Source: a virus (lineage: Duplodnaviria; Heunggongvirae; Uroviricota; Caudoviricetes). Taken from it: a stretch of DNA of 64,000 bases. This document shows, piece by piece, positions 2 through 46,875 of the stretch; position 1 is the stretch's first letter, and each line of letters starts with the position of its first letter. The notes below the pieces were generated by a model, which was not told where the DNA came from, searched no databases, and saw nothing but the letters and a program-made list of their open reading frames with translations. The stretch lies in the IMG/VR virus record IMGVR_UViG_3300006092_000059, positions 12,516-76,515 of that record, one strand, 5' to 3'. The translations under genes and the position numbers were made by a program.

Positions 2-535
2 AATAAATATGGATATGATTCTTTTAAATTTTTTATTTTAGAGAAATGTTCTAAAGAAATTCTACAGAATAAGGAGCAATATTATATTGATAATTTTAAA
101 CCTGAATATAACAAAAGAATAATTGCTGATTCAAGTAGAGGATTAAAATATGGCCCACAAAGTATAGAGCATAAATTAAAGACTTCTAGGAAATTAAGAA
201 AATTTTCTGATGAATTAGTAAAAGAAATTAGAAATCTAGCTAATTCTGGAGTTACCTATAAAGAAATAGGTGAGAGATTAAACATTAATCATAATTCTTT
301 ATCTAAATTAGTTAATGGTAGAACATATGTTGATTTACATAAAGGTAATATAAAACCTATAAATAAAAATATAAGATCTAAGCTTACAAAAGAGAAGATA
401 GTAGAAATTTATTATAAAGCTTTAAATAAAGAAAATCAGTATAAGTTAGCTGAGGAGTATAATGTAACACAAGGAACTATTTCTAGAATAAAAAATGCTA
501 AAAGAGACTATTCATGGCTAATTGTAGAATTATAA
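2..535 (+). CDS. GIY-YIG homing endonuclease, C-terminal part (5' end truncated by the window edge)
   Basis: Frame 2 translation reads ...KYGYDSFKFFILEKCSKEILQNKEQYYIDNFKPEYN, the end of a GIY-YIG catalytic domain as in I-TevI. It is followed by an HTH/NUMOD-like segment (GVTYKEIGERLNINHNSLSKLVNGRTY). The stop is at 533-535, overlapping the start of the giant ORF. Confidence 0.55.
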   Translation, partial: NKYGYDSFKFFILEKCSKEILQNKEQYYIDNFKPEYNKRIIADSSRGLKYGPQSIEHKLKTSRKLRKFSDELVKEIRNLANSGVTYKEIGERLNINHNSLSKLVNGRTYVDLHKGNIKPINKNIRSKLTKEKIVEIYYKALNKENQYKLAEEYNVTQGTISRIKNAKRDYSWLIVEL

Positions 536-7704: not shown

Positions 7705-8558
7705 AATTCATTAATATTTAAAATATCAATACTATTATCTCCATAATTAGTAACAATTACTTTATCTCCCTTGCTTGCAATTCCATGTGGAAAATCAAAT
7801 CTTTTTATTTCTCCTTTGTTCTCAAGTTTATCATTTTTTAATATAAAGTGTAATAAACTATCTTGACCTTGTAATGTAATAAATCCATTCTCTCCTGTTA
7901 AAGCAAGACAATCTGTTTGCCCATAAAATGGTAATTCAGCTAATTTTTTAAAACTAGGAAGCTCATATAAATACAAAATAGAATCAGTAATTTGTATAGG
8001 ATCTAATGATGGCCTACTATCAGATGTAGCTAATAATAATCTATTATTTAATAATAATAATAGATCTTTTGGATAATAATCAAAATTCTTAAATACTTCA
8101 TATTCCCCTGTTGGTAGATTAAAGATTAAACATTCTCTTCTTTTAGTATCAGTATTTGTAATAATAACATTATCCTGATCTATTATTCTACAACCATGAA
8201 ATTGATTAAAGTCTTTTCTTACTATATCTTTTACAAAAGATAATTTTCTATAATACTTGTCAACTTTATAAACTGATATACAACAAAATTCACTTCTTAT
8301 TGCTCTATTAGAAGTCATTATAATTCCATCCTTATAATCCATTAAATCTGGATGATAAGTTGTTTTTATCTCATCTATAATCACAGGATCTTTACTAATA
8401 TCTATTAGATATATAACTTTACCTAAATAGGAAGCAACTGCAATTAAATTATCATCAATAAAACATACAGCAGTAGCTGTGGCATATCTACTTCTTCTAC
8501 CAGCATATACTTTGTAGTATCCAGTAAGATCTATATTAGGAAGTTTGAATTTCATCAT
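7698..8558 (-). CDS. hypothetical protein, YVTN/NHL-type beta-propeller-like repeats
   Basis: C-terminal VIVTNYGDNSIDILNI resembles YVTN beta-propeller repeat signatures. Similar repeated segments occur through the protein. Confidence 0.3.
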   Translation of the reverse strand: MMKFKLPNIDLTGYYKVYAGRRSRYATATAVCFIDDNLIAVASYLGKVIYLIDISKDPVIIDEIKTTYHPDLMDYKDGIIMTSNRAIRSEFCCISVYKVDKYYRKLSFVKDIVRKDFNQFHGCRIIDQDNVIITNTDTKRRECLIFNLPTGEYEVFKNFDYYPKDLLLLLNNRLLLATSDSRPSLDPIQITDSILYLYELPSFKKLAELPFYGQTDCLALTGENGFITLQGQDSLLHFILKNDKLENKGEIKRFDFPHGIASKGDKVIVTNYGDNSIDILNINELC

Positions 8559-9252
8559 ATTTTTTTATTATTTTTTCAGGATTTTTCCAAGTTTTACTTT
8601 TTACTCTTTGAGCTATAATTCTTTGATATTCTAATCGTATTTTAGACTTCGTATTAGTATCAGCTTTTATAGTAAGATTTCTATCATGTATTCTTCTATT
8701 AAAAATAATAGTAGTAAGAGTAGCAGATTTGGCTCTGTTAAAGGTTAATCTATGTAAAAATTCTTCATCTGCACTACACTTCCAATTTTCATAACCATTT
8801 AGTTTATTAAAAATAGATTTTCTTATACCTATTACTCCACATGCTATTTCTATTTTTGCACGATTCATTCTACCATTTAGTATAGTAAAGTCTTGAAATT
8901 TTAGTCTTACTACATCTACAACTCTTATTAGATTATAAAATGATTGAACTAGAGTAGGTAGCATAGTATCATCACTATCAAAAAATATTATATATTCATA
9001 TTTAGCCTCATTTACAATATTATTTTTAACAGAATATGTTCCTACATTTTCTTCAAAATAAAAAACTCTACATCGCTTATAAAATTCTTTATTATCTTGA
9101 ATACTCTTCAGTGTTCTTTCACAATGATCCACACCTATAATAATATCTATGTCAACATTAGTTTGTTGATTATAGATAGACTGAATACATTCTTTTAGGT
9201 ATTCAGGTGTATTAAAAGTTGGAATTATGATTGAGACTCCTTTATCTGACAT
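8536..9252 (-). CDS. glycosyltransferase family 2 (GT-A fold)
   Basis: N-terminus SIIIPTFNTPEYLKECIQSI ... DIIIGVDHCE is the typical GT2 opening. An FDSDD DxD-like motif is present. Confidence 0.6.
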   Translation of the reverse strand: MSDKGVSIIIPTFNTPEYLKECIQSIYNQQTNVDIDIIIGVDHCERTLKSIQDNKEFYKRCRVFYFEENVGTYSVKNNIVNEAKYEYIIFFDSDDTMLPTLVQSFYNLIRVVDVVRLKFQDFTILNGRMNRAKIEIACGVIGIRKSIFNKLNGYENWKCSADEEFLHRLTFNRAKSATLTTIIFNRRIHDRNLTIKADTNTKSKIRLEYQRIIAQRVKSKTWKNPEKIIKKYDEIQTS

Positions 9253-9974
9253 TGTTTATTATAATTATAAAATTCTTCAAGAGTTTTTGTCCTCTTTACA
9301 TGATCTCCACTTCCTCTTTCAATTTTTTCTTTCCATTCTGGTAAAGATCTAGTATAAATATGTTTTATCCATACAAACTTAGAATGATGCCTACAAATAG
9401 GCCTTTTTACTTCTAAACCATCTTCATTAATATATCTACCTTTAATTATAGCTTTATGTGGATCTGGAAAATTTATAACAGCAGATGGTCTTACAATAGA
9501 TTTAATATGACCATTAGTATGATATTGATTATATTTTTCTATTGGTTGTCTTGTTTCAAAGTAAGGGTCATTTCCATACATTCTCCATGATAATCCTAAA
9601 GCATCAAACTTACCATATAATTTTTCTAATATAGTAAGATCTTCTTTTACATTCATAGTATTAGATGTATAAAATTCATCCGTATCTATAAATAACATCC
9701 AATCTATTCCTGTATAAGGTATAACTTGTTCACATGCATGTTTATAAGCTCTACACTGACTTCCTACCTCATTATCTTTCCAAGTATATACTGAAACAAT
9801 ACCAGGTTTTATAATACCTTTATCAGTAAGTTTATTTCTTAATTCACCTATACAATTTTTACTACCATTATCATATATCATAAAATGGTCAAACCCCACC
9901 TTTATATGGTGGAGTAGCCATTCTTCTAAATATTCATTTTCATCTTTTATAATAAGACAAACTGCAGTTTTCAT
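9225..9974 (-). CDS. GT-A-like glycosyltransferase (Glyco_tranf_2_4 / GT92-like)
   Basis: CLIIKDENEYLEEWLLHHIKVGFDHFMIYDNGS pattern and an LFIDTDEF DxD motif. Confidence 0.4.
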   Translation of the reverse strand: MKTAVCLIIKDENEYLEEWLLHHIKVGFDHFMIYDNGSKNCIGELRNKLTDKGIIKPGIVSVYTWKDNEVGSQCRAYKHACEQVIPYTGIDWMLFIDTDEFYTSNTMNVKEDLTILEKLYGKFDALGLSWRMYGNDPYFETRQPIEKYNQYHTNGHIKSIVRPSAVINFPDPHKAIIKGRYINEDGLEVKRPICRHHSKFVWIKHIYTRSLPEWKEKIERGSGDHVKRTKTLEEFYNYNKQCQIKESQS

Positions 9975-10339
9975 TTTACTTCTATAAGTACTTGTTTTTT
10001 AAAGTTATAAATATATTTTGCATGGTTAGCATTCATTAAAAAATGAGATAATTCTTCACACCATATATCTATACTTAATTCACCTATAGTAGTTTTAATA
10101 CCTCCATAGCTATTAATAGTATAAGAATTAAAGCCTCTATTATTTATTAAAGCAGCTATAGTTCTTGTAGTAACTTGAAATAACTCTCTGTTAGGAACTA
10201 TTATATCAAAGTCATTTGGTTTTTCATCTTTAAGAAGTTTTTCTAAACAACTTCCTACTATCCATCCTTCTGATATTAGTAATAAACTAATAATTTCTGC
10301 AGGTAAATCTCTATAAAATTTATTCTTTATATTTTCCAT
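9971..10339 (-). CDS. hypothetical protein, minimal nucleotidyltransferase-like
   Basis: WIVGSCLEKLL ... NDFDIIVPN resembles the GS ... DxD core of Pol-beta-superfamily nucleotidyltransferases. Weak. Confidence 0.3.
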   Translation of the reverse strand: MENIKNKFYRDLPAEIISLLLISEGWIVGSCLEKLLKDEKPNDFDIIVPNRELFQVTTRTIAALINNRGFNSYTINSYGGIKTTIGELSIDIWCEELSHFLMNANHAKYIYNFKKQVLIEVK

Positions 10340-12078
10340 TAATTTATTTGTCTAAATGTAATTTCTGGATTATTTTCAAGCCATATACTTAATAATCTTT
10401 CAAGTATAAACGTATGAAAAGTATAATAATCTAGACCAGTTTGAAGTTTTAAAGCATCTGTTGGTAAGCCTGCTTTATAATTAGCATTAGTAAATGCTTC
10501 TTCTTTAAACTCAGTTTCTAATAATTCAATAGCAGGTTTTATTACCTCATTTATATATTTTTTGTATATAGAGTATTTTCCTATCCAAAAATTTGAATAA
10601 ATGATATTTTTAGGCTCAATTAATTTTAAATTAAGCTTATGACATATTTTAGTAAATAGACTCAAAAATCCTGGATGAGAATATTCCGTAAAAGCCAAAT
10701 AATGTTTTTTTATAAAACTAGGAGATAATCCTATTATATCAGGAATTCCTTCAGCTTTTAACTCATTAAATATCTTTGTTACTAACTTTTTAGGAAGTCT
10801 TGTTTTATATGGAAACTTCCAACTAAATATTCCTAAATAATCATTATCTTTAAAGTCATTATTATCAATTAAATTAATAATAGGATTATACTCAAATAGA
10901 TAACTTTTTTCCTCTACAGTTCTAATTGGGTTGTATATAGGAGTATATTCAGTAGATTGATCTAAAGTATAAGTTATTCCATAAATTTTTAAATCTTCTG
11001 GAGTAACTTCTGTTGATTCATTCATTAGGAATTCACAAGCTAATCTTAAATTATCAATTCTTTGCTCAAAATGATTATTAGTTTTTACAACTTCAGAAGC
11101 TTCTTTTCCTACTTTTTTGAAAGATCTATCTTTTACTAAACTTTTAACCCATCCATAATATTCAGATGTCTTCTCAGCAGGTAAAATTGTTGATACCTCT
11201 TTATCAATATAAAGAGAACTTCCTATTACAGGAATTTCTTTACAAGCAGCTTCTATTAGTTTAAGAGAACTTTTACATTCTGCAAATTCACTCTTTTCAA
11301 GTGGAGCTAATAAAATATCTATTTTATCATAAAGATCCATATATGAATCAGTAGATTTACCTTCTAAGACCTCTACTTCCATTTTTGGATTAACTTTAAA
11401 CAAGGATACAATCTTGTCCCATTTCTTATTAGGTTGATATCCTGCTATAGTAAATTTACATTTTTTTTGTATGTCACTATCATTAGCTAACTTTTGAACT
11501 GTAGTTCTAAGTAACTGCCAATCACTATAATGGGCTAATCCTCCACAAACACCTATAGATATCTTACCATTAGATTCTTCCTTTTTAGGAATGAACTGAT
11601 TTTCTCCTAAAGGTAGAAAATTAGGACTAATTGTTACATATTTATTAAAACTTACACAATGAGCAGCTAATCTTTGTGTTGATACAGTTACTATATCTGC
11701 AAGCACTATTAAACCTATTAAAGAACTATAATCAGTTTTACTCTGTATATGATTTTTAGGAAGTTCCCAAAAGTCATCAACATCTTGAACTAATTTAAAT
11801 CCATATTTAGATTTCCAGCCAGATATTTGAGCAATTGGATTAGAATAGATCCAATTTACCCAAACAATATCGTAGTTTTTAACTACTTCTTCTTGTAATT
11901 CATACTTACCTGGTTCATGTTCTAAAATATCTACCTCAATAATTGCCTTTTCTCCTTTTATTTCAATTTCTTTACCCCTTAAATAAGAAAGGGGAAGAGC
12001 CACACGGTGATACCTTGAGCCACTTCCCTTCTCTATTAATCCTAAAATTTTTACTTGTTTCATCTGGCAAATATACAA
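10339..12078 (-). CDS. GT-B-type glycosyltransferase-like protein with an extra C-terminal domain
   Basis: KSSLKLIEAACKEIPVIGSS resembles the GT4 E ... GLPLIEAMACGxPVI motif. The ~220-aa C-terminal extension is unassigned. Confidence 0.35.
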   Translation of the reverse strand: MYICQMKQVKILGLIEKGSGSRYHRVALPLSYLRGKEIEIKGEKAIIEVDILEHEPGKYELQEEVVKNYDIVWVNWIYSNPIAQISGWKSKYGFKLVQDVDDFWELPKNHIQSKTDYSSLIGLIVLADIVTVSTQRLAAHCVSFNKYVTISPNFLPLGENQFIPKKEESNGKISIGVCGGLAHYSDWQLLRTTVQKLANDSDIQKKCKFTIAGYQPNKKWDKIVSLFKVNPKMEVEVLEGKSTDSYMDLYDKIDILLAPLEKSEFAECKSSLKLIEAACKEIPVIGSSLYIDKEVSTILPAEKTSEYYGWVKSLVKDRSFKKVGKEASEVVKTNNHFEQRIDNLRLACEFLMNESTEVTPEDLKIYGITYTLDQSTEYTPIYNPIRTVEEKSYLFEYNPIINLIDNNDFKDNDYLGIFSWKFPYKTRLPKKLVTKIFNELKAEGIPDIIGLSPSFIKKHYLAFTEYSHPGFLSLFTKICHKLNLKLIEPKNIIYSNFWIGKYSIYKKYINEVIKPAIELLETEFKEEAFTNANYKAGLPTDALKLQTGLDYYTFHTFILERLLSIWLENNPEITFRQIN

Positions 12079-22925: not shown

Positions 22926-23898
22926 TGAATATATTGGCAGTTATTTCTCCATTATTTTCAATTACTTCACGTCTATAAGTCCAACTATTATTAGTTTGAT
23001 ACCAAATTAAGTCTGCAATTAGCTCAACTAATCCTTTGACTTTTTCTCCTTTTTTATTAAAACCTCCTCTTAAACCTTTATCCCAATCTGATTCCTTCAT
23101 TTTGTAAATTACAGGAGTACCAGGATAGACAGTAGATTCTACCATCCATTTAAAATTAAGTTTATAATTAAGAAGTTCAGAGTTTTTCTCTTTTAAATAA
23201 TTAAATAAAGCTAATCCATAAATAACCATTTGTAACCAATATTGATATTGATCAATACTATTTTCAAATGTATCTACAGAATAACCAGTTGTTTTAACAT
23301 CAATTAAATCTATTTCTTTTCTATCATGATATATTTTTACCATATCAAGAATAGCTTTGAAATCTATATTATTGATTTTCCAGTTTATCTCTAACTGTGT
23401 AAATAATTCTTCCTTATCATTAATTTTAAAATAATGATTAGTATAAGAATTAGTAAGTAAAGAAGTAACAACTGCTTCTGCTTTAGACATTAAATCATTT
23501 GTATATAATAATTTCTTGTCCTTTGTAGCAGTAAGTTGTTCTTCAAAATAGGATTTTCCTTCCTTATCAAATCTTTTTTGAATAGATTCAATATCTCCCT
23601 TAAATCCACTTTTTACATAAGATTTTTCAAAATTACTAGGATCTCCAGGATAATCTTTTTCAAGTCTTAGGTAGGTACTTGTAAGTTCCCACATCATAGC
23701 AGTAGGCTTCTCAGCACTTGCTAATAAATATCTCTCTGAGAATTTCTCAGGAGTAGTAAGAAGGCAATCTATTATTCCTCCTAATAGTAAAGATTCACTG
23801 TCCTTTTCCTCTGCATTGAGCATTTTCTTAAAATAAGCTGGCCCAATTTGCAAATTCTTTAGTCTAGAGAATGATAAAGGCTTATTGAAGCTTTCCAC
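22918..23898 (-). CDS. PD-(D/E)XK nuclease, RecB/Cas4/lambda-exonuclease-like
   Basis: IDLIDVKTTGY (D ... DxK) followed by QYQYWLQMVIY (RecB-family QhxxY motif). Confidence 0.5.
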   Translation of the reverse strand: MESFNKPLSFSRLKNLQIGPAYFKKMLNAEEKDSESLLLGGIIDCLLTTPEKFSERYLLASAEKPTAMMWELTSTYLRLEKDYPGDPSNFEKSYVKSGFKGDIESIQKRFDKEGKSYFEEQLTATKDKKLLYTNDLMSKAEAVVTSLLTNSYTNHYFKINDKEELFTQLEINWKINNIDFKAILDMVKIYHDRKEIDLIDVKTTGYSVDTFENSIDQYQYWLQMVIYGLALFNYLKEKNSELLNYKLNFKWMVESTVYPGTPVIYKMKESDWDKGLRGGFNKKGEKVKGLVELIADLIWYQTNNSWTYRREVIENNGEITANIFND

Positions 23899-24280
23899 GT
23901 CTTTTCTTTAAACTATGTTCAATCTCTGTTGCTGTTTTAGTATGATGACATTTATCACAAAGAAGTTGTAATTCTTCTTTTTTACAAAAAAGTCTTCTTG
24001 TAAATACAGCAAGGTCATCATAGGATTTCAATGTACCACACGGAGTAATATGATCTACATTAATATTCTTTTGTGCAAACCAATCTTCACATGAAGCACA
24101 CTGAAATTCCCATTTTAACCTCTTATTTTTACTTTTAGAAGGTCTTCTTCCTTCTTGAAGTACCTGATATTTCACAGGATACTTGTTCCATAACATTCTT
24201 AATCCACTACGTATAAAAGTCCAATATCTACTATGAGTCCATAGAGGATATATTTCACTTTTAGTTCCTTTTCTTAACAA
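23882..24280 (-). CDS. HNH endonuclease
   Basis: CASCEDWF ... NVDHITPCG ... CDKCHHTKT is an HNH zinc-finger nuclease core. Confidence 0.65.
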   Translation of the reverse strand: MLRKGTKSEIYPLWTHSRYWTFIRSGLRMLWNKYPVKYQVLQEGRRPSKSKNKRLKWEFQCASCEDWFAQKNINVDHITPCGTLKSYDDLAVFTRRLFCKKEELQLLCDKCHHTKTATEIEHSLKKRRGKLQ

Positions 24281-24305: not shown

Positions 24306-25982
24306 TTAATACAAACTATCTAGAATTCCATTACTATAAGCAAATTTCTTATCTCCATCAAATTCAATGTTATTTGCGATAACATCTTCTTTCTTGGTAG
24401 CTTCTGCTATTTGCTCTTTTCTATGTCTAATATAACCAATTAAATAATTAGCTACATCTTTTCCTGTAGTATCTTCGAAATCATAATTTCCAAAGTAATC
24501 AGAAAAACCATGTAGAATATCTTCTAATGAAGGTTTTATTTTACGACTAATAATTTCTTTTGTATATCTTTCTGCAAAAGTAACAATTCCTACACAAATA
24601 AACAACCAATTAGATATTTTTGTGAAATTAAAAGTTGGAGTATGTATTCTAAATTCTAAGGTACGATTTGCACTGAATATTAAAGAATTAAAATTTACAA
24701 GATAGTATCTTGTAGGTATGCCCCATTTTTGCCCACCAAGAGGGTGAATAAGAGAGGTCATATTATAAGAGTCATTCATTTCTGGAACTTTCCCATCAGT
24801 TAAAAACTCAAATATTTTATTAAAATTCTTTCTTACATCATTTGAAAATTCGTGCTTAGTATTGTATATCTTTTTGTACAAAGAGTTAGTCATTATTCCT
24901 ATATTAGGAAGTCTTTGATTGTATCTCTTCTGTTTTCTTAAATATTTTACTTCATCTGATTTATATAAAGGAAATATAGAATAAATTTCATCTTGGATAG
25001 TTTGCATTATTATCCAATATGCTAGAATTGTAAGTTCATCATATTTTATATTACCAATATGTATATGCATTGAACATGTAGTATCAAACTCACATTTACT
25101 GTTGAGTTCACCACATATTCTTTTAATAGCTTGTAATCCTTTGTCCCCTTGCATAGGAACTGTTGTATATTCATAAGGCTCTATACCAGAAGCTCTTCTT
25201 AAACTACCATCTTTTAAAGGAACTAATCCTAAAGGCCCTAAAAGCTTTTGTGGAACAGTACCATTACAAGACTCTAGCTCAATACCAAATGTTTTTCCAA
25301 ACAAAAGTTTGCTAAGTTCTGATGTACGCTGATTTGATGGATACACTGTTTTATCATACATATCTTTGATAGTACGAAATGAAGGATTTCCTGCTGATGC
25401 ACTATAATCAAATGGTAGATTTTTATATCTTATAACTCTGGGAGTTACTATACTTTTTAATTCATCTTTATCAAGATTACTTTTTTTGTAGTAGAGGTCA
25501 TTCCATTTACATGGAATATATCCCATTGCTAAAGCTATTTTTTCATTCAGACAGGCTGTTGTTTGGGAAGTATGATATCTTTCAACTGTTTCTACAACTT
25601 CTTCAGTTCTTTTAAAGAAAGCTCTATTTCCTTTAGTGTCAATAAATCCTTCTATAAGATCTTTATTTTGTTGTAATTCTTCTATTAATTCATATTTACC
25701 TGTAGTAAAATTTAAACCAATCTTACCACTTGATAATCTATACCATTCTCCATCAGAAGCATCATCAGAATACCCTATCCAGAAACAGGTTACGCCTTTT
25801 TCATGATATTCTTTATGATTCTTATAATAGATACATTTACTTCTTGGTACAACTTTTCCTTCAACTGTTTTTACCTGTTTTTCCTGAGTAATTTCCATAC
25901 CTTTCTTTTTTTTAGAAGACAATTGCCGTTTCGGAGTTAACTGGATTTTGGCTTTTTTGCTCTTCTTTTGTAATGTGCTCAT
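24306..25982 (-). CDS. amidoligase (COG2170 / YbdK / GCS2-like carboxylate-amine ligase) with a Lys-rich N-terminal tail
   Basis: KTFGIELESCNG matches the YbdK TLGIELE substrate/Mg site. CSMHIHIGN matches YbdK GQHVHVGC. The first 28 codons (KKSKKAKIQ ... KKKKG) overlap the GATase gene by 70 nt; an alternative start is at 25898. Confidence 0.55.
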   Translation of the reverse strand: MSTLQKKSKKAKIQLTPKRQLSSKKKKGMEITQEKQVKTVEGKVVPRSKCIYYKNHKEYHEKGVTCFWIGYSDDASDGEWYRLSSGKIGLNFTTGKYELIEELQQNKDLIEGFIDTKGNRAFFKRTEEVVETVERYHTSQTTACLNEKIALAMGYIPCKWNDLYYKKSNLDKDELKSIVTPRVIRYKNLPFDYSASAGNPSFRTIKDMYDKTVYPSNQRTSELSKLLFGKTFGIELESCNGTVPQKLLGPLGLVPLKDGSLRRASGIEPYEYTTVPMQGDKGLQAIKRICGELNSKCEFDTTCSMHIHIGNIKYDELTILAYWIIMQTIQDEIYSIFPLYKSDEVKYLRKQKRYNQRLPNIGIMTNSLYKKIYNTKHEFSNDVRKNFNKIFEFLTDGKVPEMNDSYNMTSLIHPLGGQKWGIPTRYYLVNFNSLIFSANRTLEFRIHTPTFNFTKISNWLFICVGIVTFAERYTKEIISRKIKPSLEDILHGFSDYFGNYDFEDTTGKDVANYLIGYIRHRKEQIAEATKKEDVIANNIEFDGDKKFAYSNGILDSLY

Positions 25983-27654
25983 CTAGATATAACCAGGCTT
26001 CATCAAGCCATTTTACTAATTTTTTTCTTAAACTTTCTGTAACTGGAAGAATTTCACTAGTTTCAGGATCTTTACTAAAATCCTTATCAGCTAATGCTTC
26101 AGAAGCTTCATTTACTGTATTCATTGCAGCTATATAAACATTTAACATATCTACATCAGAATCAGTAATAGCACTATGCATTACTTCTGCATTTTCTTCT
26201 TCGTCTTCTGTATTATCTGTAAGTTCTAGAGTATTCTGTGATGGTTTAGTATAAGTACATTTCTTAAAGAAACCAGTAGAGAATTCATAAACTTTACCCT
26301 GATTAAATAAAGGAGTAAATTTACCTGTAATATAAGCATCAACACTTCCTCCAATAGTATTATAACCACCTTCTCTTAGGTTGTCAAATAATAAGGTTCT
26401 AGCACTGAATTTTCTTTTAGTAGCAGGATCAAAATTCCAAGAATGTTTAGTTCCTATTTTTCCATCTAATTTACCTTCAGAATATAATTTACAAATATCT
26501 TTTAAATCTTCTTCAGAATTTAATAACCAGCCATTCCAGAAATGATACACTTTACCTGTACCAGAATAATTTTTACTTGAAGGAGCATTTCCATTCTCAT
26601 CTAATAAATAACTAACACCTTCTTTTAGTTTCTGACCAAGTATATGTCCATTTTTATGATATCTACCTTTAACAAACACTACTCTATCATTACCAAAAGG
26701 ATTAAAGAATGGCTCATCTTCAATTAGAAAATCCCCATTATTGTCTCTACGGGTGATTTGATCAGCCTTTTTAACCAACTTTTCTGGGTATCCGATGAAG
26801 ACTTCACTAGCTCTTCTCCTGTTACTGCCGCTAGAAGTTGTAGAACTCCCACTACTGGAACTGCTCGTAGTAGTTCCCTTGCTCTCTCGATTAAATTGTT
26901 TCTTTAATGTTGAAATTTGTCCATCACTTATAATATGGATTTTATTAGGTTCAAAAGCTTTTATACAACCTTCTTTATCATCATCATCACAAATTGCCAT
27001 TAATGATTCTTTAATAGATGAAATATAAACTGCTTTTTCTCCTCTTTTTTTCCAATAAAATAAAGGTCTTTCACCAGTAGAGTCTTCACCTATACTAGAT
27101 TTACCTCTAAATACATACAGTTTATTCTCATCAGTAAAACTCCATAAAAGAGCCGCATAACCTTCATAATCATTAAGTACATTTATATTAGTTTCAGTTG
27201 CTCTACTATCTACTAAGATATTTAAAAGCTCAATACTGTCAACATTATATTTATACTTACTGCCATATTTAGTTCTTAATTCTTCTCTGTTTCTGATAAT
27301 ACCATTATGTGCACCTACAGCATATGGAACTACATTTTTTAATCCTACTTTTTTTCCTTCTTTATGATTTTCTTCTGTATAAAATCCAAATGGGTGAGCA
27401 TTATCTTCAGTATGACTTCCTACTGTAGACTTTCTTGTATGACCTATTACAGTAAAATATTTTTTGATTGGTTTAAGTGAAGTTGCTTCAATAAAATTGA
27501 AAACATTAGCCTTAGCTCCTACCCCTTTTTTTAATAAACCATCCCAGTAAATACCACAACTATCATCACCTCTTCCGAGATTGTACATCCATAAAATTTT
27601 TAATTTGTCAGGATCAGGTGCTGACACACCATTATAACCTACTAATCCGCACAT
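25912..27654 (-). CDS. class II (Ntn) glutamine amidotransferase domain protein with a Ser/Thr-rich linker and an unassigned C-terminal domain
   Basis: N-terminus MCGLVGYNG has the catalytic Cys at position 2, as in PurF/AsnB/GlmS-type amidotransferases. It has an internal SSSSSGSSTTSSGS low-complexity linker and no PP-loop SGGxDS. Confidence 0.7.
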   Translation of the reverse strand: MCGLVGYNGVSAPDPDKLKILWMYNLGRGDDSCGIYWDGLLKKGVGAKANVFNFIEATSLKPIKKYFTVIGHTRKSTVGSHTEDNAHPFGFYTEENHKEGKKVGLKNVVPYAVGAHNGIIRNREELRTKYGSKYKYNVDSIELLNILVDSRATETNINVLNDYEGYAALLWSFTDENKLYVFRGKSSIGEDSTGERPLFYWKKRGEKAVYISSIKESLMAICDDDDKEGCIKAFEPNKIHIISDGQISTLKKQFNRESKGTTTSSSSSGSSTTSSGSNRRRASEVFIGYPEKLVKKADQITRRDNNGDFLIEDEPFFNPFGNDRVVFVKGRYHKNGHILGQKLKEGVSYLLDENGNAPSSKNYSGTGKVYHFWNGWLLNSEEDLKDICKLYSEGKLDGKIGTKHSWNFDPATKRKFSARTLLFDNLREGGYNTIGGSVDAYITGKFTPLFNQGKVYEFSTGFFKKCTYTKPSQNTLELTDNTEDEEENAEVMHSAITDSDVDMLNVYIAAMNTVNEASEALADKDFSKDPETSEILPVTESLRKKLVKWLDEAWLYLDEHITKEEQKSQNPVNSETAIVF

Positions 27655-27657
27655 ATT

Positions 27658-28473
27658 TTAATTTTTTTCTTTTAATGCTATTATTTTTGGAAGTATTTCC
27701 AAGTATTTTTGTTTTAAATAACCACTCATCCATCCAGCTGAGTTAGCTTCTAATAAAGCCCATTTAGGATTTTTTCTGTGTTTGTCATAAGCATTTGTAT
27801 TGCCTTGTAATTTAATATCAAAGCAACAAATATCCATACCTATAACCTTAATAGCTTTCTGACAATCTTCTATAATATCTAACCAATTATCTGGATGCTC
27901 AAAAGCTTCATTTTTCTTTCTGTAATTATCTATATGTACTTCATGGATCCAAATAGAATTTTTATCATTTGGTTTCCAATCTCCATCATCTTTAGCTCTT
28001 ACACGCATCTTTCTTAATCCTGCAATATAACCAAAGTCTTTAGATATATAAATTCTTACTTCTTTTGCATAACCTAAATATTCTTCAAATATATAGGCTT
28101 CACAATTATGCTCTTCAATAAACTTTTCAAAGGCATTAAAATCATCAAGTTTATAAACTCCTAATGATTGTGAAGATGTTCTTCTTTTAGCTATGATAGG
28201 AAAATCCATTTCTGCTACCATAGTAGTAAGTTTCTCAGGATTATCACTCCATCTCCATTCTGAATGCTGTACACCTGCTTTATCAAATGCTTCTTTTGTC
28301 AATTTTTTATCTACACAGGTTTCTATTGCCTTTATAGGATTAATTTCAAAATCACATTTATAAGGAGTACACGAACCAAATCTTATACATCCTTTTCTAG
28401 ATGATTTAAATTGATTCTTTACATAGTCATAACTCTCATGCGTTGACGAGAATATTATTACTGGGTTGCTCAT
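27658..28473 (-). CDS. ATP-grasp ligase (RimK / glutathione-synthetase-like)
   Basis: FPIIAKRRTSSQSLGVYKL ... EAYIFEEYLGYAKEVRIYIS matches the ATP-grasp central domain pattern. Confidence 0.55.
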   Translation of the reverse strand: MSNPVIIFSSTHESYDYVKNQFKSSRKGCIRFGSCTPYKCDFEINPIKAIETCVDKKLTKEAFDKAGVQHSEWRWSDNPEKLTTMVAEMDFPIIAKRRTSSQSLGVYKLDDFNAFEKFIEEHNCEAYIFEEYLGYAKEVRIYISKDFGYIAGLRKMRVRAKDDGDWKPNDKNSIWIHEVHIDNYRKKNEAFEHPDNWLDIIEDCQKAIKVIGMDICCFDIKLQGNTNAYDKHRKNPKWALLEANSAGWMSGYLKQKYLEILPKIIALKEKN

Positions 28474-29086
28474 TTTCTTTTTTAATATTTAAATGTTTCT
28501 TTAATTCTGTAAATAGAGAATCTCTACCTACTTTGTATAAATTTCTGGAGAAAGTAATTAACTTATAAGTACCTTCATATCCCATTGCACCTTTTCTATA
28601 GGTTCTTTCTAATTCTTTAAATTGTGCTTTTTCATAAGCATCAAGATTATTACTATTAGTAGTATCTACTGCTATTAAACCAGTATAACCACTCTTAATT
28701 GCTAAGAATAATGCACAATATAATGTTATTATGTAAGAAATAGATTCAGCATTATGATAAAAACTAGATGTACCAAAATTTCCATAAGCTGCTGTAATTA
28801 TACCTTTTCCACAACAATTGGGAAAGCAACTAAGTGTAAATCTACCAAACTCTCTAGTTTTATTATCTTCTGTATCTATAAAAAGACTAACTATTGAGTT
28901 GATATAAGTTTCACCATTACCAAATTTAGCTAATGTGCTAGTGCCACCATCTTCAGCTGTAAAGGGATTAATTGTAGCTGTTAGCTTTTTACCTGTTATT
29001 TTATTTATTTCTGTTAAAATTTCTGCAAAAAAAGGTACAACACTTTCTGTTAAATGTGTTCCTGCTGTTTTTGTAAGTGTTACCAT
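28436..29086 (-). CDS. hypothetical protein (Gly/Thr-rich, Cys cluster CFPNCCGKG)
   Basis: 216-aa ORF inside the enzymatic cluster. No motif recognised. Confidence 0.4.
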   Translation of the reverse strand: MVTLTKTAGTHLTESVVPFFAEILTEINKITGKKLTATINPFTAEDGGTSTLAKFGNGETYINSIVSLFIDTEDNKTREFGRFTLSCFPNCCGKGIITAAYGNFGTSSFYHNAESISYIITLYCALFLAIKSGYTGLIAVDTTNSNNLDAYEKAQFKELERTYRKGAMGYEGTYKLITFSRNLYKVGRDSLFTELKKHLNIKKENEQPSNNILVNA

Positions 29087-30054: not shown

Positions 30055-30423
30055 TTAATATTTTTTTCTGTAATCTGAATAGTCTCCTGATTCTACTACT
30101 GTTCCGTGTCCATTACAATAATATAACCAAGCTTCTCTTGTCACACCATCATCTCCATCTATTTTAGTAAGTTCTCTTTTATAGAATCTTGGATGCCCTT
30201 CAAGACCATCCAATCTACTAAGAGTAACATCATCTACTTCATAAACTTCAACTGTAATTTTACTTACTTCTTGTGTTCTTGAAACATATGGAATTCCAGC
30301 TGCATGCATTACCATTTTATCAGCTGTTTTACCAGTTGTAATTAATGGGCTACTTGTTAACAATCTGTTATTTCCATACCCTTTTCTTAATGTACCATAC
30401 ACTGATACTAAATGTTTACTCAT
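30055..30423 (-). CDS. gamma-glutamyl cyclotransferase (AIG2/GGCT-like)
   Basis: N-terminal VSVYGTLRKGYGNNRLL matches the GGCT YGSL ... G motif. 122 aa. Confidence 0.55.
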   Translation of the reverse strand: MSKHLVSVYGTLRKGYGNNRLLTSSPLITTGKTADKMVMHAAGIPYVSRTQEVSKITVEVYEVDDVTLSRLDGLEGHPRFYKRELTKIDGDDGVTREAWLYYCNGHGTVVESGDYSDYRKKY

Positions 30424-39938: not shown

Positions 39939-41831
39939 CTACTTTTGCCAACACTTAGTTATAGTTGTGTCTACCTCCATTTTAACTTTAGAGACATATT
40001 TATTTCCAACTTCTATCATAAGTGAAGCCATTTCCTTAGAAAATTCCTGTGCTAAGTCTTCTCTGACTTCTACATCAATAGCATCATGGACAGTGCATAT
40101 TAAATATGCTACATCTTCATTCCACTTCTTGTTATATCTTTTAATAAGATTCCTAACTTCTATTAATGCTTCTTTACATATATCAGCACCACTACCCTGA
40201 ATTGGTGAATTACCACCATTTCTTTCAGTTTGTCCTTCTATAGTAAGTATGCGTTTCCAAGTTTCCTTTTCACCATATTTCACAGTTTTTCTAAGGTTGA
40301 TGGCAATATCCATATCTGGATACCATCTTCTTCTTTTACAAGGAAAGAATGTTACAGAATATTTGTTTTTTTTAGCAAAAACACCTTGATACTTTAACCA
40401 TTCATTCAGTTTAGGAAATGAATGTGCGTATATTTCAAAAAGCTCATTAGCTTCTTCAAGGCTGATTCCTAATGTATCTGCAAGCTTTGGAGGCCCCATT
40501 CCATAAGGTTTACCAAAATTAATGGTTTTAGCCTTATTTCTTAGTTCCTTATCAGCTTTAGTGATAGTACGTTTAAACATCATACTACCAGCATAACAAT
40601 GTAAGTCTTCACCTCTATTTAAAACATCAATGAATCCCTCTTCATTACTGGCATCAGCCATTAGTCTCAATTCTTGTCCTGAGTAATCAATACTTACCCA
40701 AGCATAACCTTCTCTTGCCTCAAAACAATTCCTAAATGTGTTAGATGCAGGAATATTTTGAAGATTAGGAGCATTATCTTCTTTACTACCACTACTTACT
40801 CTCCCTGTATTTAATACTTGCCAAAATGAAGTATGAACTCTATTAGTAGTAGTATTAATGGATCTTAAAAATCCTATACCATAAGTAGAAATAATTTTTG
40901 CTTTTTCTCTATATTCTTGTAATAGAGCACAAAATGGATGTCTTTTAGCTATTTTAGACAGTTCTCTGTCATTAGTAGAATCAATTTCAAATCCTAGTGC
41001 TTTTAATACTTCGTATATTTGAGAAGGAGAAGCATAATTAATTTTTATATCCCTTTCAGTATAACCAAATAAATTCCCCTGTTGCCCTTTAGAGTGCCAT
41101 TTTGACAGCTTTGATTCAGATTCTACAATCTTATCCAATTGATTTGTAATTGTGTCTAATTCAGCTCTAAAATGCGTAGTATTGTGAATCCATTTGTCTT
41201 TATTAAGATACATTCCATTATACTCTATATCAGCTATTGCCTTAACAACTTCATTTTCAAGATTTACACAATAAGTGAGATCTAACTCTTTAGCCTTAGT
41301 TTCTTGTATTTCTTTAATTTTATGAAGATAAGTAACATCTAATGCAGCGTATTCTATTTGTTTGTCAGTATATGGAATATCTCCAACTTTATGAAAATCT
41401 CCTCTGGTTGTTTTATCCAAATCAACCTGAAGATATCTCTGAGCTAGATCTTTTAATCCATATCCATATTTTTCATATCCACAATACAATACACATTCAG
41501 CGAGCATTGTATCATAAATATTCTCAAGTACTATTCCTGCTTTTTTAAGAAATTTATAATCAAATTTGGAATTGTGTAGAATACATTTTTTTGTTTCTAA
41601 CAAATTCTTGAAGTTCAAGATATCTATACTTCTAACATCAATTACAAACTGATTTTTATTATCTCCTATTTGAAGACATATAATTTTCTTACTATGGCAA
41701 TCTTTTCCCTGAGTTTCTGTATCCACAGCTATTTCATCATGATTTGAGAAATATCTGAGGCATTCCTCTACAGATGAGGAAGAATATATAGAACTATCTA
41801 TAAATCCTGTCTTTCCAATAAAATAAATCAA
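39939..41831 (-). CDS. family A DNA polymerase with a 3'-5' proofreading exonuclease domain
   Basis: Exo motifs VDTETQG and YAALDVTYL. Polymerase motif A DYSGQELRLMA, motif B KTINFGKPYGMG and motif C VHDAIDVEV. Confidence 0.9.
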   Translation of the reverse strand: MIYFIGKTGFIDSSIYSSSSVEECLRYFSNHDEIAVDTETQGKDCHSKKIICLQIGDNKNQFVIDVRSIDILNFKNLLETKKCILHNSKFDYKFLKKAGIVLENIYDTMLAECVLYCGYEKYGYGLKDLAQRYLQVDLDKTTRGDFHKVGDIPYTDKQIEYAALDVTYLHKIKEIQETKAKELDLTYCVNLENEVVKAIADIEYNGMYLNKDKWIHNTTHFRAELDTITNQLDKIVESESKLSKWHSKGQQGNLFGYTERDIKINYASPSQIYEVLKALGFEIDSTNDRELSKIAKRHPFCALLQEYREKAKIISTYGIGFLRSINTTTNRVHTSFWQVLNTGRVSSGSKEDNAPNLQNIPASNTFRNCFEAREGYAWVSIDYSGQELRLMADASNEEGFIDVLNRGEDLHCYAGSMMFKRTITKADKELRNKAKTINFGKPYGMGPPKLADTLGISLEEANELFEIYAHSFPKLNEWLKYQGVFAKKNKYSVTFFPCKRRRWYPDMDIAINLRKTVKYGEKETWKRILTIEGQTERNGGNSPIQGSGADICKEALIEVRNLIKRYNKKWNEDVAYLICTVHDAIDVEVREDLAQEFSKEMASLMIEVGNKYVSKVKMEVDTTITKCWQK

Positions 41832-42930: not shown

Positions 42931-43749
42931 TCATTTGTAGACTGTTGCAACAGGTACTGGAAGAGATTCTAAGTTATATTTTTTGATAAGAGAAGCAGCA
43001 GCGGAATAATCAGAATTGTTAATAGTACTAATTATTATTTCTGCTAAGTTACTCCCATTTTCAATTTCCCCATGTTCCTTTACAAATTCTACAGCTCTTA
43101 GAGTGTTATCCCATACCCATTTAATAAGAGTGTCATCAAAAATCCAGAAATTACTCAAAACTCTATACTCAAATCTGTTTTGTTTGAGTTTTTCTCTGTA
43201 ATCTCCAGCTTTTCCATAAAGGTCTCTTCTATATAAGTCTGTATCCATTAAAATACTAGGAACTGCTAAGTGTAAATCAAGAGCTTTAACTACAGCTAAC
43301 ATATTTCTACCATCTATTGAATCAAATTCAAGATGTATATGCCCACCACAACTTCTTAATGTACCATCAGGAGATGGTCTTTCCATTTGCTCACCTTTTC
43401 TCCAAGCATCAAAAGATGGTTCACAACCAAATTCAGTTGCTTTAACATCTACTAGTTCTTCATAAGGAAAATGAGCAGATGCTTCTGTTCCTATATCATA
43501 AGAGTCTGGAATAATATTTTTCAGGTATTTCAAACCATAACGGATATTATTGGTGAATTCTTGCAAATCACTAGCTGGTGGTACATTGAATTCTACAGCA
43601 ACATTGTCATGTAGAAATGCAAAGCCATCCTTATCCATTGGCATTGGTTTTTCTTTTGTTCCCATTCCTACAATAGGAATAGAAGATTTGAATTTGTCTC
43701 CTTCTTTGAGAAAAAATTCTGGGTCTGTTCCAAATTTTGTTATCTTCAT
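42931..43749 (-). CDS. second amidoligase-like protein (COG2170/YbdK-like)
   Basis: N-terminus KFGTDPEFFLKEG (corresponds to GIELEF) and SCGGHIHLEFD (corresponds to the YbdK HVHVG motif). Confidence 0.45.
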   Translation of the reverse strand: MKITKFGTDPEFFLKEGDKFKSSIPIVGMGTKEKPMPMDKDGFAFLHDNVAVEFNVPPASDLQEFTNNIRYGLKYLKNIIPDSYDIGTEASAHFPYEELVDVKATEFGCEPSFDAWRKGEQMERPSPDGTLRSCGGHIHLEFDSIDGRNMLAVVKALDLHLAVPSILMDTDLYRRDLYGKAGDYREKLKQNRFEYRVLSNFWIFDDTLIKWVWDNTLRAVEFVKEHGEIENGSNLAEIIISTINNSDYSAAASLIKKYNLESLPVPVATVYK

Positions 43750-43950: not shown

Positions 43951-44427
43951 CTATTCTTTTACTTGCCAGTCAATTTTAGGACAATATTTACCTTTAAAAG
44001 ATTTCCAACCTTCTCCTATAATATCTGAGGTTTCAGATAAATTACGTGATACTGAACTCTGTGGAAATACTTCTTTAAAGTAATAAACGATTAATAATAT
44101 TACCACTGATACTGCTAATATAATTAACAATGGCCCAAGAATTGCCCAGAATCCATGTTTTACAGTAGTACCAATAAATACTCCTGCAAGTGAAAGAACT
44201 GCATAAGCCATCAATGTATTAACAATATTTCTTCCAAATGCTCCTGTTTCTCCACTTATTCCTTTATAGATAAGCCCAATCCAAGTAATAGGTAACATTA
44301 GGGTTGCCCATACTAATGCCCAGAAATAATCACAGAAATTTTCATTTGGTTCATCATTTCCAAACCATCCTGCATAATTAAGTTTCCAGAATTTATAATG
44401 CCACGAGTTGTTTTTTGTAAGTTTCAT
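43951..44427 (-). CDS. integral membrane protein
   Basis: 158 aa with ~4 predicted TM helices, immediately downstream of the NAMPT gene. Confidence 0.4.
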   Translation of the reverse strand: MKLTKNNSWHYKFWKLNYAGWFGNDEPNENFCDYFWALVWATLMLPITWIGLIYKGISGETGAFGRNIVNTLMAYAVLSLAGVFIGTTVKHGFWAILGPLLIILAVSVVILLIVYYFKEVFPQSSVSRNLSETSDIIGEGWKSFKGKYCPKIDWQVKE

Positions 44428-46057
44428 TTACTTGTTGTTTAATTTTGATTAAAGTTGTTTGATTGAAAAATTCTCCATTTCTGTAGATAGTTTTTAATTC
44501 ATTTTCTTCTGAGTTATATTTTTCCTCAGAAACTCCTGATTCACAGATATACTCTCCATCTACAAGGGAGATAAACTGAAATCCTTTTAATGATTTCTTA
44601 GTTCCATTATCTGTAATAGGATCTTTATAAATATCATATTCTTCTCTTACTCCTTCTACAAATGTTTCAAACCAGCAACCTTTAGCTGCAAATCCAGCAC
44701 TGTCACGAGTTAACATTACATAAGTGTAAGAGCCTATTCCTAATACAATATTAGTAGCAGCAAAACCTTTATCAGCAAGTCTGCTATACATAGCTACTTG
44801 ACGCTCAAGATTAATACTATCACCATAGATAGCACCAATATGTGAATCAAGAACTTTATATCCTTCATCACTAACAGTACCACCAAAAATATCCCAAAGT
44901 AGTTCTGCTACTCCTTTTGATTCTATTTGTGTAGTTGTATCATTATTTGAAATTCTTATCCATTTGTTTCTCATCTCAACTGCCTCAAATCCACAAATAA
45001 TATCTACAGGATCACCAGAATCAGGTCTTAATACTAATTTTCCTTCTCTTTCAAGGATTTCTTTCTTGAGCCTTGGTATAATATGAGTACAGGATTTCCA
45101 TGTATTCATAGTATCACATACATAAGATAAAATTCCTTTAGGGAATTTCTTTAGCCAATCTCTTAACATTAACCATTCTGCAATAGTTAAATAATCAGGA
45201 TTCTCTATAGAGCCTTCACATGGAGCATCAAATGAATAGTATTCTTTTATACTTTCATCTAACAATCCTTGTTTAAGTTTTCTTTCATAATAGAAAATAT
45301 TAGTACAGCTTACTGAATGTTCCGAAGCATTTACTGAGAAGATAGGTACTTCCTCTTCATCAAAATCATAATAATATCTTGATGCAGGAATTACATTCAA
45401 TGTATCACTTCCTGAATTACAAATAGCATGTCCTAATCCTACTGCAATAGAAGTATAAGGATTACCTCCTCTTGAGTGAAAATCATGACACATAAAATCA
45501 GCAAACCACAGATTTTTTGAATCTGTTTTAGTTACCCATTCTACTGCATTTTCTTTAAATTTAGCCCCAATAGTAGCAGCTGTGGGCATTTGCCATGCTA
45601 ACTTACTTACTAAAGTTTCTAAAAATAACCCAAGCCATGAATATCCATCTACTGTATTAATACCTGTCATATGAGGTATATTTGGTTGTGTAAACACACC
45701 CTCAGTAAGTGATTTAACATCTACAGGTAAATATCCTAAATTGTGTAATTGTTTGAAATGATCTCCATTATATTCAATCATAAGATATTTTGACATATCT
45801 TTAGCAAATTTCTCAGCTACTTCAATAGGTTTATTGAAGAAAAACTCTTGAAATGCACTATGGATATATCTCCAAGTTAACTGCTGACCAGCACTCATCA
45901 ATTTTTTAATAGATGGATGCATATTTTTAAGACTTCGTGGAATCCAATTCCAACCTTCTCTGCTAACATTTGGTGCTAACATAGAATGATGTCCTACTTT
46001 ATAGCCATCAGCCTCATAAAGAGGATTTAGTTTAAACGTCTGTTTTAATTTGTTCAT
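44393..46057 (-). CDS. nadV: nicotinamide phosphoribosyltransferase (NAMPT/NadV)
   Basis: LYEADGYKVGHH (NAMPT LLATDSYKVTHY), HDFHSRGG (HDFGYRG), LVLRPDSGDPVDI (LIIRPDSGNPLDTV), AIYGDSINL (IQGDGVDINTL). Confidence 0.85.
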   Translation of the reverse strand: MNKLKQTFKLNPLYEADGYKVGHHSMLAPNVSREGWNWIPRSLKNMHPSIKKLMSAGQQLTWRYIHSAFQEFFFNKPIEVAEKFAKDMSKYLMIEYNGDHFKQLHNLGYLPVDVKSLTEGVFTQPNIPHMTGINTVDGYSWLGLFLETLVSKLAWQMPTAATIGAKFKENAVEWVTKTDSKNLWFADFMCHDFHSRGGNPYTSIAVGLGHAICNSGSDTLNVIPASRYYYDFDEEEVPIFSVNASEHSVSCTNIFYYERKLKQGLLDESIKEYYSFDAPCEGSIENPDYLTIAEWLMLRDWLKKFPKGILSYVCDTMNTWKSCTHIIPRLKKEILEREGKLVLRPDSGDPVDIICGFEAVEMRNKWIRISNNDTTTQIESKGVAELLWDIFGGTVSDEGYKVLDSHIGAIYGDSINLERQVAMYSRLADKGFAATNIVLGIGSYTYVMLTRDSAGFAAKGCWFETFVEGVREEYDIYKDPITDNGTKKSLKGFQFISLVDGEYICESGVSEEKYNSEENELKTIYRNGEFFNQTTLIKIKQQVNETYKKQLVAL

Positions 46058-46875
46058 TTTAATTTTACTTCAATTAATCTGTCATTAACAAATCTTTGTT
46101 GTCTTGCAAAAGTTACATCCCCAAAGTTCAAGAATATATCTTCTTTACCTAAAAAGCTATTAGTAAAATAGATTTTTTCTAGATTTTGTTCTAGTTTACT
46201 AAATCCTTTACTAAATATTGCATGAGTTACACACAAATAAACTCTTTGAGCACCACGTATTTTAAGCTGTTTAGAACATTCTATAAATGTACCACCTCCA
46301 TCACAGAGATCATCTACAATTATACAATCTTTTTCAATTTTAGCTTCTAATGGTATTTCAATTGTATCTACTTGTCCTTTTACTCGTGTCTTATTACATT
46401 TTACTATATTAGTACTGCCTAATTCTTCTTCTATCCAAGCACCAGCACCTTTATCAGGAGCTATTATTGAATAATTAAGTAAAGAATTGTCAATAATACA
46501 TTGTTGTACTAAATCTGCAGTGACAGTAATTTCTTTACTTTTATTTATTAGTTCAAGACTTTTCTTTGAATGAGGTTTTAATATTTCTACTTCCTCAAAT
46601 TCTAATAAATTGATAAATCTTGCAACTAAATAAAGATCAGCAAATTCTCCTTCACTGAACTGTCTGTCACATCTAGCAGCTAATAAGTAATTAATTCTTA
46701 ATTTTCTTAATTTAGGACATATTCCTTTCAACTGGGCTAATAAAAATAAATCATCAAAAGATCTTAGTGATACACAAATTTCTTCTAAATCTTTAAATCC
46801 ATCTTCTTCTTTTAGAATTAAATGTTGATGCCCATCTGGAAAGTATGCTACATTAAGCTGTGATAAATTCCTCAT
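46054..46875 (-). CDS. ribose-phosphate pyrophosphokinase-like type I PRTase-fold protein (likely PRPP supply for NAMPT)
   Basis: PRPP-loop CIIVDDLCDGGGTF and IIAPDKGAGAW (Prs VVSPDAGG). Its stop overlaps the nadV start. Confidence 0.5.
   Translation of the reverse strand: MRNLSQLNVAYFPDGHQHLILKEEDGFKDLEEICVSLRSFDDLFLLAQLKGICPKLRKLRINYLLAARCDRQFSEGEFADLYLVARFINLLEFEEVEILKPHSKKSLELINKSKEITVTADLVQQCIIDNSLLNYSIIAPDKGAGAWIEEELGSTNIVKCNKTRVKGQVDTIEIPLEAKIEKDCIIVDDLCDGGGTFIECSKQLKIRGAQRVYLCVTHAIFSKGFSKLEQNLEKIYFTNSFLGKEDIFLNFGDVTFARQQRFVNDRLIEVKLK

Follow-up and report, generated by a model that had tools for sequence, protein, structure and literature searches.

A candidate third glutamine-synthetase-like ligase family linked to the amidoligase cassette of an uncultured, distant crAss-like phage

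The stretch of viral DNA analysed here (64,000 nucleotides, referred to as the window) encodes three proteins with a glutamine-synthetase-like (GS) catalytic fold, designated P1, P2 and P3, along with further genes of the phage amidoligase cassette and a pair of NAD-related genes (Table 1). The family-A DNA polymerase of the window shares 28-32 % identity with those of the crAss-like phages cr111_1, IAS virus and crAss001, and a megablast search with 8 kb of the window matched no phage record, which places the window in an uncultured, distant crAss-like lineage. Identical copies of P2 and P3 occur on a metagenomic contig of 76.5 kb. Elsewhere, three consecutive glycosyltransferase-like genes are present. 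An ORF of 2049 aa, among the few long ORFs on the plus strand, shows weak matches to PHROGs without an assigned function; crAss-like genes of this size encode the virion RNA polymerase or associated proteins (phi14:2 g065 and g066).

Table 1. Features of the window, with positions, strand and assignment.
Feature	Position	Strand	Description
Long ORF	514..6663	+	2049 aa
Glycosyltransferase-like gene	8536..9252	-	GtrB-like; first of three consecutive genes (8536..12078)
Glycosyltransferase-like gene	9225..9974	-	second of the three
Glycosyltransferase-like gene	10339..12078	-	third of the three; phrog_7162, E 7e-41
HNH endonuclease	23882..24280	-	phrog_1985, E 5e-32; between P1 and the PD-(D/E)XK exonuclease
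P1	24306..25982	-	558 aa; PF12224 Amidoligase_2 domain at about residues 230-470; first GS-fold ligase of the cassette
Class-II (Ntn) glutamine amidotransferase	25912..27654	-	580 aa; Pfam GATase_6 + GATase_7; NCBIfam GlmS/PurF N-terminal region
RimK-like ATP-grasp ligase	27658..28473	-	271 aa; Pfam ATP-grasp E 1e-4, NCBIfam rimK_fam E 3e-12, both below cutoff
216-aa gene	28436..29086	-	cassette gene flanked by the UDG-like and ATP-grasp genes
Gamma-glutamyl cyclotransferase (GGACT/AIG2-like)	30055..30423	-	122 aa; PF06094 E 1.5e-20; phrog_2520 E 1e-27
Family-A DNA polymerase	39939..41831	-	
P2	42931..43749	-	272 aa; PF14395 (phiEco32-like COOH-NH2 ligase type 2); second GS-fold ligase of the cassette
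Nampt-family gene	44393..46057	-	PF04095; phrog_448 E 3e-132
Prs-family gene	46054..46875	-	Pfam PF14572 + PF00156; NCBIfam ribose-phosphate diphosphokinase below cutoff
P3	53351..53977	-	208 aa; minimal GS-fold ligase (predicted), remote relative of PF14395; Q121-x-N123 instead of H-x-H

The three ligase ORFs lie exactly where a first inspection of the letters (the sequence-only reading) had placed them, and the strings quoted there were found: KFGTDPEFFL and GGHIHLE correspond to residues 5-14 and 135-141 of P2, and MKYGIELEFF to residues 1-10 of P3. The window has 123 ORFs of 60 aa or more, and the ordered set G-x-[DE]-x-E, then H-x-H or Q-x-N, then hydrophobic-E-[FY]-R is confined to P1, P2 and P3, so that their likeness is more than chance. 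The proposal that P2 and P3 are further carboxylate-amine ligases is supported by their GS fold, and the window is thus predicted to encode three such enzymes. Their description as paralogs needs revision, since recent paralogy is absent: all pairwise BLAST E-values are at least 0.15, and comparison of the P1-family alignment with P2 or P3 yields non-significant hhalign values (24.5 % for P2, 2.6 % for P3), in which only the short H-x-H or E-F/Y-R motifs align. P1 resembles the other two in its motif order at the superfamily level, but homology is undetectable by either method and P1 carries about 230 additional N-terminal residues. The sole pair that is demonstrably related, and remotely so, is P2-P3 (hhalign 94.3 %). 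The motif order common to all three could be taken to indicate recent duplicates that provide an extra dosage of one activity, an idea that has next to no probability: it is refuted by the pairwise BLAST results and by the hhalign comparisons of P1 with the P2 and P3 families, and the three proteins fall into different Pfam/PHROG families, each with its own deep and separate set of homologs. By sequence, they are assigned to three distinct families of one superfamily.

For P2, the match to Pfam PF14395 reaches 39.9 bits (cutoff 25; E 3.7e-10), with residues 133-207 as the aligned part, and a full-length match to phrog_3815 was obtained (E 3e-59). The protein has 441 relatives, with PF14395 in all among the matches listed, and homologs in 306 phage records. 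Invariant residues in 31 sequences of the P2 family are G7, D9, P10, E11, E53, G135, G136, H137, H139, E194, Y195 and R196; the N-terminal G-x-D-P-E motif, the strand-2 E, GGH-x-H and the C-terminal E-Y-R are all kept. A search of PDB sequences with the P2 profile returned nothing. Score, PHROG, motifs and fold agree in making P2 a member of the family that contains PaP3 gp48, Cellulophaga phage phi14:2 g039 and cr108_1 gp032, and it can be regarded as an ordinary component, with a predicted ligase activity, of a phage enzyme cassette already known to be widespread. The sequence-only reading had made its proposal depend on matches of the second and third proteins to PF12224 or GCS2. Neither P2 nor P3 matches PF12224 at E up to 1 or the GCS2/YbdK HMM (PF04107), which, taken to the letter, tells against the proposal; the test was too narrow, since PF14395, the model that P2 matches, is a sister to these, and it takes the fold and broad profiles to recognise P3. 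In comparison with YbdK/GCS2 (PDB 1tt4), both phage proteins lack a sequence-level GCS2 match and are 80-150 aa shorter, and YbdK is a stand-alone cellular enzyme, whereas the phage ligases belong to a multi-ligase cassette.

The phage amidoligase cassette was reportedly predicted by computational means by Iyer et al. in 2009. It is composed of a gamma-glutamyl cyclotransferase (GGCT), an ATP-grasp ligase, a PF14395 ligase, a class-II glutamine amidotransferase (GATase) and a PF12224 ligase, with the PF14395 slot located between the ATP-grasp and GATase genes. In Cellulophaga phage phi14:2, the order is primase, GGCT, ATP-grasp, PF14395, GATase, amidoligase and UDG, and the same gene set is found in cr108_1, Lbo-JY46 and PaP3 as well as in UFV-P2 (PMC3890496). 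The window has the same five gene families as the cassettes known from PaP3/LUZ24-like, phiEco32-like and some crAss-like phages. P1 matches PF12224 (E 9.7e-9) and phrog_2443 (E 1.3e-19) and is homologous to phi14:2 g041 and to cassette genes of Lbo-JY46 and cr108_1. The ATP-grasp protein retrieves cr108_1 gp028 (E 1e-40) and phi14:2 g038 (E 6e-30), both annotated as ATP-grasp, in BLAST searches, and homologs of the cyclotransferase are part of the cassettes of PaP3, Lbo-JY46 and phi14:2. Upstream of P1, the genes follow one another in the order GATase, ATP-grasp, 216-aa gene, UDG-like, cyclotransferase and primase; searches of Pfam, PHROGs and NCBIfam gave no match for the 216-aa gene, and the reference phages contain no homolog of it. 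The cassette has the same neighbours as in phi14:2 and cr108_1, namely primase, UDG and exonuclease genes. In the region 25898..25982, the longest ORF of P1 overlaps the amidotransferase gene by 71 nt. Alignments of P1 with its homologs begin at residues 21-29, and a methionine at residue 29 (codon 25898..25896) is located just past the amidotransferase stop; Met29 is probably the true start, which would give a protein of about 530 aa.

A PF12224 gene was found no more than 10 kb from PF14395 at 75 of 80 and at 75 of 78 viral loci, and BLAST detected a GATase homolog within the same distance of P2 at 62 of 80 loci. Two GS-fold ligases and an ATP-grasp enzyme are therefore the norm of the cassette, and the dosage that had been called unusual for a phage is not, given also the number of phage records with P2 homologs. 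What is unusual here is the dispersal of the cassette and the third ligase. In contrast to the cassettes of the reference phages, that of the window is split over three sites, with the core at 24.3-30.4 kb beside the primase gene, P2 at 42.9 kb and P3, which is found in none of them, at 53.4 kb. The ATP-grasp and amidotransferase genes are 3 nt apart, so the usual slot of P2 is empty. P2 is situated 15 kb from this slot, between the DNA polymerase region and the predicted NAD-salvage gene pair, and, unlike the usual PF14395 genes, does not adjoin the GATase and PF12224 genes, both of which are about 17 kb away. Mobile HNH endonucleases might be linked with the rearrangement of the cassette: one such gene flanks P1 in the window, and the cassette of UFV-P2 contains an HNH gene (PMC3890496).

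P3 has no match in Pfam, PHROGs or NCBIfam, a tblastn search against 50,697 phage records (INPHARED) gave none either, and its profile produced only noise against PDB sequences. The same holds for P3 and 40 relatives searched against Pfam, where PF14395 remained unmatched at E up to 1 in all 41 sequences. The family consists of 97 close relatives and 434 representative clusters at 50 % identity, all of about 200 aa and none annotated. The 185,579 genomes of cellular species that were scanned yielded a single member, located on an archaeal MAG contig, and the family therefore looks virus-specific. With small alignments, hhalign gave a value of 1.5 % for P3 against P2; this was superseded by broad alignments (227 versus 121 sequences), for which P3 and PF14395 match with a probability of 94.3 % (E 9.8e-8, 172 columns). 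An HMM of the P3 family, built from 227 sequences, aligns colinearly and over the full length with the PF14395 protein of Leptolyngbya phage Lbo-JY46 (E 1.8e-6) and detects 15 of 78 other PF14395 proteins at E <1e-3. Searched against PaP3, Lbo-JY46, phi14:2 and cr108_1, this HMM revealed no P3 in any of them. Two sets of candidate relatives were rejected: PaP3 orf47 is not matched by the P3 HMM, and the genes of about 210 aa that adjoin P2 homologs in Lbo-JY46 and cr108_1 have class-I amidotransferase motifs. The latter (L092:14604-15236 in Lbo-JY46 and L094:28034-28699 in cr108_1) are class-I glutamine amidotransferase-like genes (GICRG ... HPE) that adjoin PF14395 and are present in addition to the class-II amidotransferase; none is located near P2 of the window.

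The motifs of P3 pair with those of P2: G4-x-E6-x-E8 with G7-x-D9-x-E11, E34 with E53, Q121-x-N123 with H137-x-H139 and E192-Y-R194 with E194-Y-R196. Across the 227 sequences, E6, E8, E34, R175, G178, E192, R194 and S195 are invariant, and R190 is nearly so (207 sequences). Position 121 is occupied by Q (149 sequences), H (77) or P (one), and the residues counted at position 123 are N (144), S (64) and H (15); P3 of the window has neither histidine of H-x-H. The active-site pattern appears to be kept in the form of the strand-1 E-x-E, E34, the Q/H-x-N/S/H position and R-x-E-Y-R, and this conservation is more in keeping with an active site that has been retained, with a change in a metal or phosphate ligand, than with one in decay. 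P3 and PF14395 share fold, motif order and a significant profile-profile match, but P3 escapes the Pfam model, has about 60 aa fewer, carries Q-x-N or H-x-S in place of H-x-H and appears to lack the C-terminal helical extension present in the model of P2. On these comparisons, P3 is assigned to an undescribed, apparently virus-only family that is sister to or derived from PF14395 and is placed outside PF14395, PF12224 and GCS2 as a member.

Several viral and metagenomic relatives carry P3 in or near the cassette. At locus L006, the contiguous order is GGCT, an unassigned gene (x), ATP-grasp, P3, P2, GATase and P1; at L098, ATP-grasp, P3 and P2 follow one another with overlapping gene ends; at L114, P3 precedes P2; and at L119, P2 precedes P3, with coding ends that overlap or nearly do so. 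P3 is found no more than 10 kb from P2 at L001, L003, L102, L120, L123/124 and in the window, and other cassette genes are also near in the relatives. In the window itself, 9.6 kb separate P3 from P2 and 27 kb separate it from P1, and the P3 gene belongs to another run of small genes. Linkage to the cassette is seen for both P3 subtypes, Q-x-N and H-x-S, and so predates the main split of the P3 family. Overall, of 21 distinct P3 loci, about 10 have P2 somewhere in the flanking sequence available, far above chance given that PF14395 occurs in about 500 of 2.9 million IMG/VR contigs. None of 157 further loci centred on P2 contains P3; the cassette thus works without it, and P3 is a rare, lineage-specific addition.

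These observations favour a reading, with a probability of about 0.68, in which P3 of the window adds a third, lineage-specific ligation step to the pathway of the cassette. From the observed folds, families, conservation and gene linkage, and by analogy with characterised GS-fold enzymes, we infer the catalysis, step order, substrates and product of this pathway as follows. In each ligase, a carboxylate would be activated as an acyl-phosphate at the expense of ATP and then coupled to an amine. The coupling partner would be ammonia, with the class-II amidotransferase as its presumed donor, or else an amino acid or amine. The GS-fold ligases and the ATP-grasp enzyme would together perform the stepwise assembly of a small molecule or peptide-like tag joined by amide bonds; the cyclotransferase, expected to cleave gamma-glutamyl-amine links, could act in trimming or recycling, and P3 would contribute one further ligation. 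Linked ligases of these kinds have been proposed to make successive ligations with distinct moieties (PMC4431377), and the sequential addition of moieties suggested in the sequence-only reading agrees with that proposal, the stepwise ligation in the window being a prediction. According to PMC10580990, Iyer et al. (2009) predicted that the cassette acts in modification of the cell wall and in superinfection exclusion. No other published target prediction for the cassette and no experiments on any of its components or on a PF14395 member were found in the literature searched.

Instead of a third ligation, P3 might provide a catalytically dead or regulatory pseudo-ligase that acts as a scaffold or specificity subunit through binding of P2 or of the P2 substrate. 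Where PF14395 has an invariant H-x-H (H137, H139), P3 of the window and about two thirds of its family have Q-x-N, P3 is the smallest of the three proteins, and its gene abuts or overlaps that of P2 at L006, L098, L114 and L119, as would fit a heteromer. This possibility is nevertheless rather unlikely in view of a pattern expected of a maintained active site (E6, E8, E34, R175, E192 and R194 invariant in 227 sequences) and of the restriction of position 121 to Q or H, bar the one P, with His121 kept in a third of the P3 sequences. As a matter of general chemistry, Mg/Mn or phosphate could still be ligated by the side chains of Gln and Asn. Alternatively, P3 could be independent of the cassette and have a different substrate, such as one from auxiliary metabolism connected with nucleotides or NAD, with its adjacency to P2 reflecting a shared early or replication block. 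In line with this, about half of the distinct P3 loci, 11 of about 21, have no cassette gene (P2, P1 or GATase) in the available flanks (L004, L005, L007-L010, L096, L099, L116, L125 and L129), and the absence of P3 from the 157 P2-centred loci points the same way. Moreover, five divergent loci (the window, L003:1149-2837, L004:14695-16089, L005:1514-2923 and L116:18399-19766) have a Nampt-like gene at a distance of 4-8 kb from P3, compared with 1 of 80 P2 loci. An independent function is still considered unlikely, because four loci, independent of one another and divergent, have P3 directly beside P2, with either gene first and with both subtypes represented, and with coding ends overlapping or nearly so in L098 and L119, because its sole detectable relatives are the PF14395 ligases of the cassette, and because Nampt never adjoins P3.

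The NAD-related genes allow for a further connection. In the window, the Prs-family gene is immediately upstream of the Nampt-family gene, with an overlap of 4 nt; in gene families and order, the pair has the architecture of NARP1, a phage NAD+ reconstitution pathway of two genes, Adps and Namat (bioRxiv 10.1101/2024.02.11.579819). In Lbo-JY46 (L092:8549-12758), PncB/Nampt and PrsA genes abut the amidoligase cassette. The proximity of Nampt and P3 may mean that they belong to one auxiliary or counter-defence island, or that they are functionally linked. It is very improbable that the P3 family partners NAD+ reconstitution genes besides the cassette, with ligases and GATase-derived ammonia re-amidating a nicotinate-type or other defence-depleted metabolite or building a decoy; if this were true, the phage amidoligase cassette would be a counter-defence pathway. 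A DNA or nucleotide hypermodification, in which the three ligases would build an amino-acid or amine moiety on a base and which the sequence-only reading had hinted at, is quite improbable as well. The cassette is part of the replication module in the window, phi14:2 and cr108_1, between the primase and the UDG-like/PD-(D/E)XK exonuclease genes, and amidoligase and amidotransferase domains without an assigned role co-occur, which is co-occurrence only, with thymidine-hypermodification genes (Lee et al. 2021; PMC8989533). Against this, a scan with Pfam and PHROGs of about 50 window ORFs, with small ORFs partly covered, contained none of the thymidine-hypermodification markers 5-HMUDK, aGPT-Pplase and dUMP hydroxymethylase, and the only published prediction found for the cassette, as given in PMC10580990, is the one of cell-wall modification and superinfection exclusion mentioned above.

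With a third ligation step by P3 as the preferred reading, the two proteins differ in what they add: P2 is already known in kind, and P3 represents a new family of an established superfamily and, as a component of a known cassette, is both new and rare. This cassette is present in hundreds of sequenced phages, including the Pseudomonas PaP3/LUZ24 group and crAss-like gut phages, and the family added to it has an altered metal-site motif and is absent from the Pfam, PHROG and NCBIfam libraries searched. A model of the P3 family would improve the annotation of viral metagenomes. Natural two-ligase and three-ligase versions of the cassette have now been identified, and their products could be compared by metabolomics.
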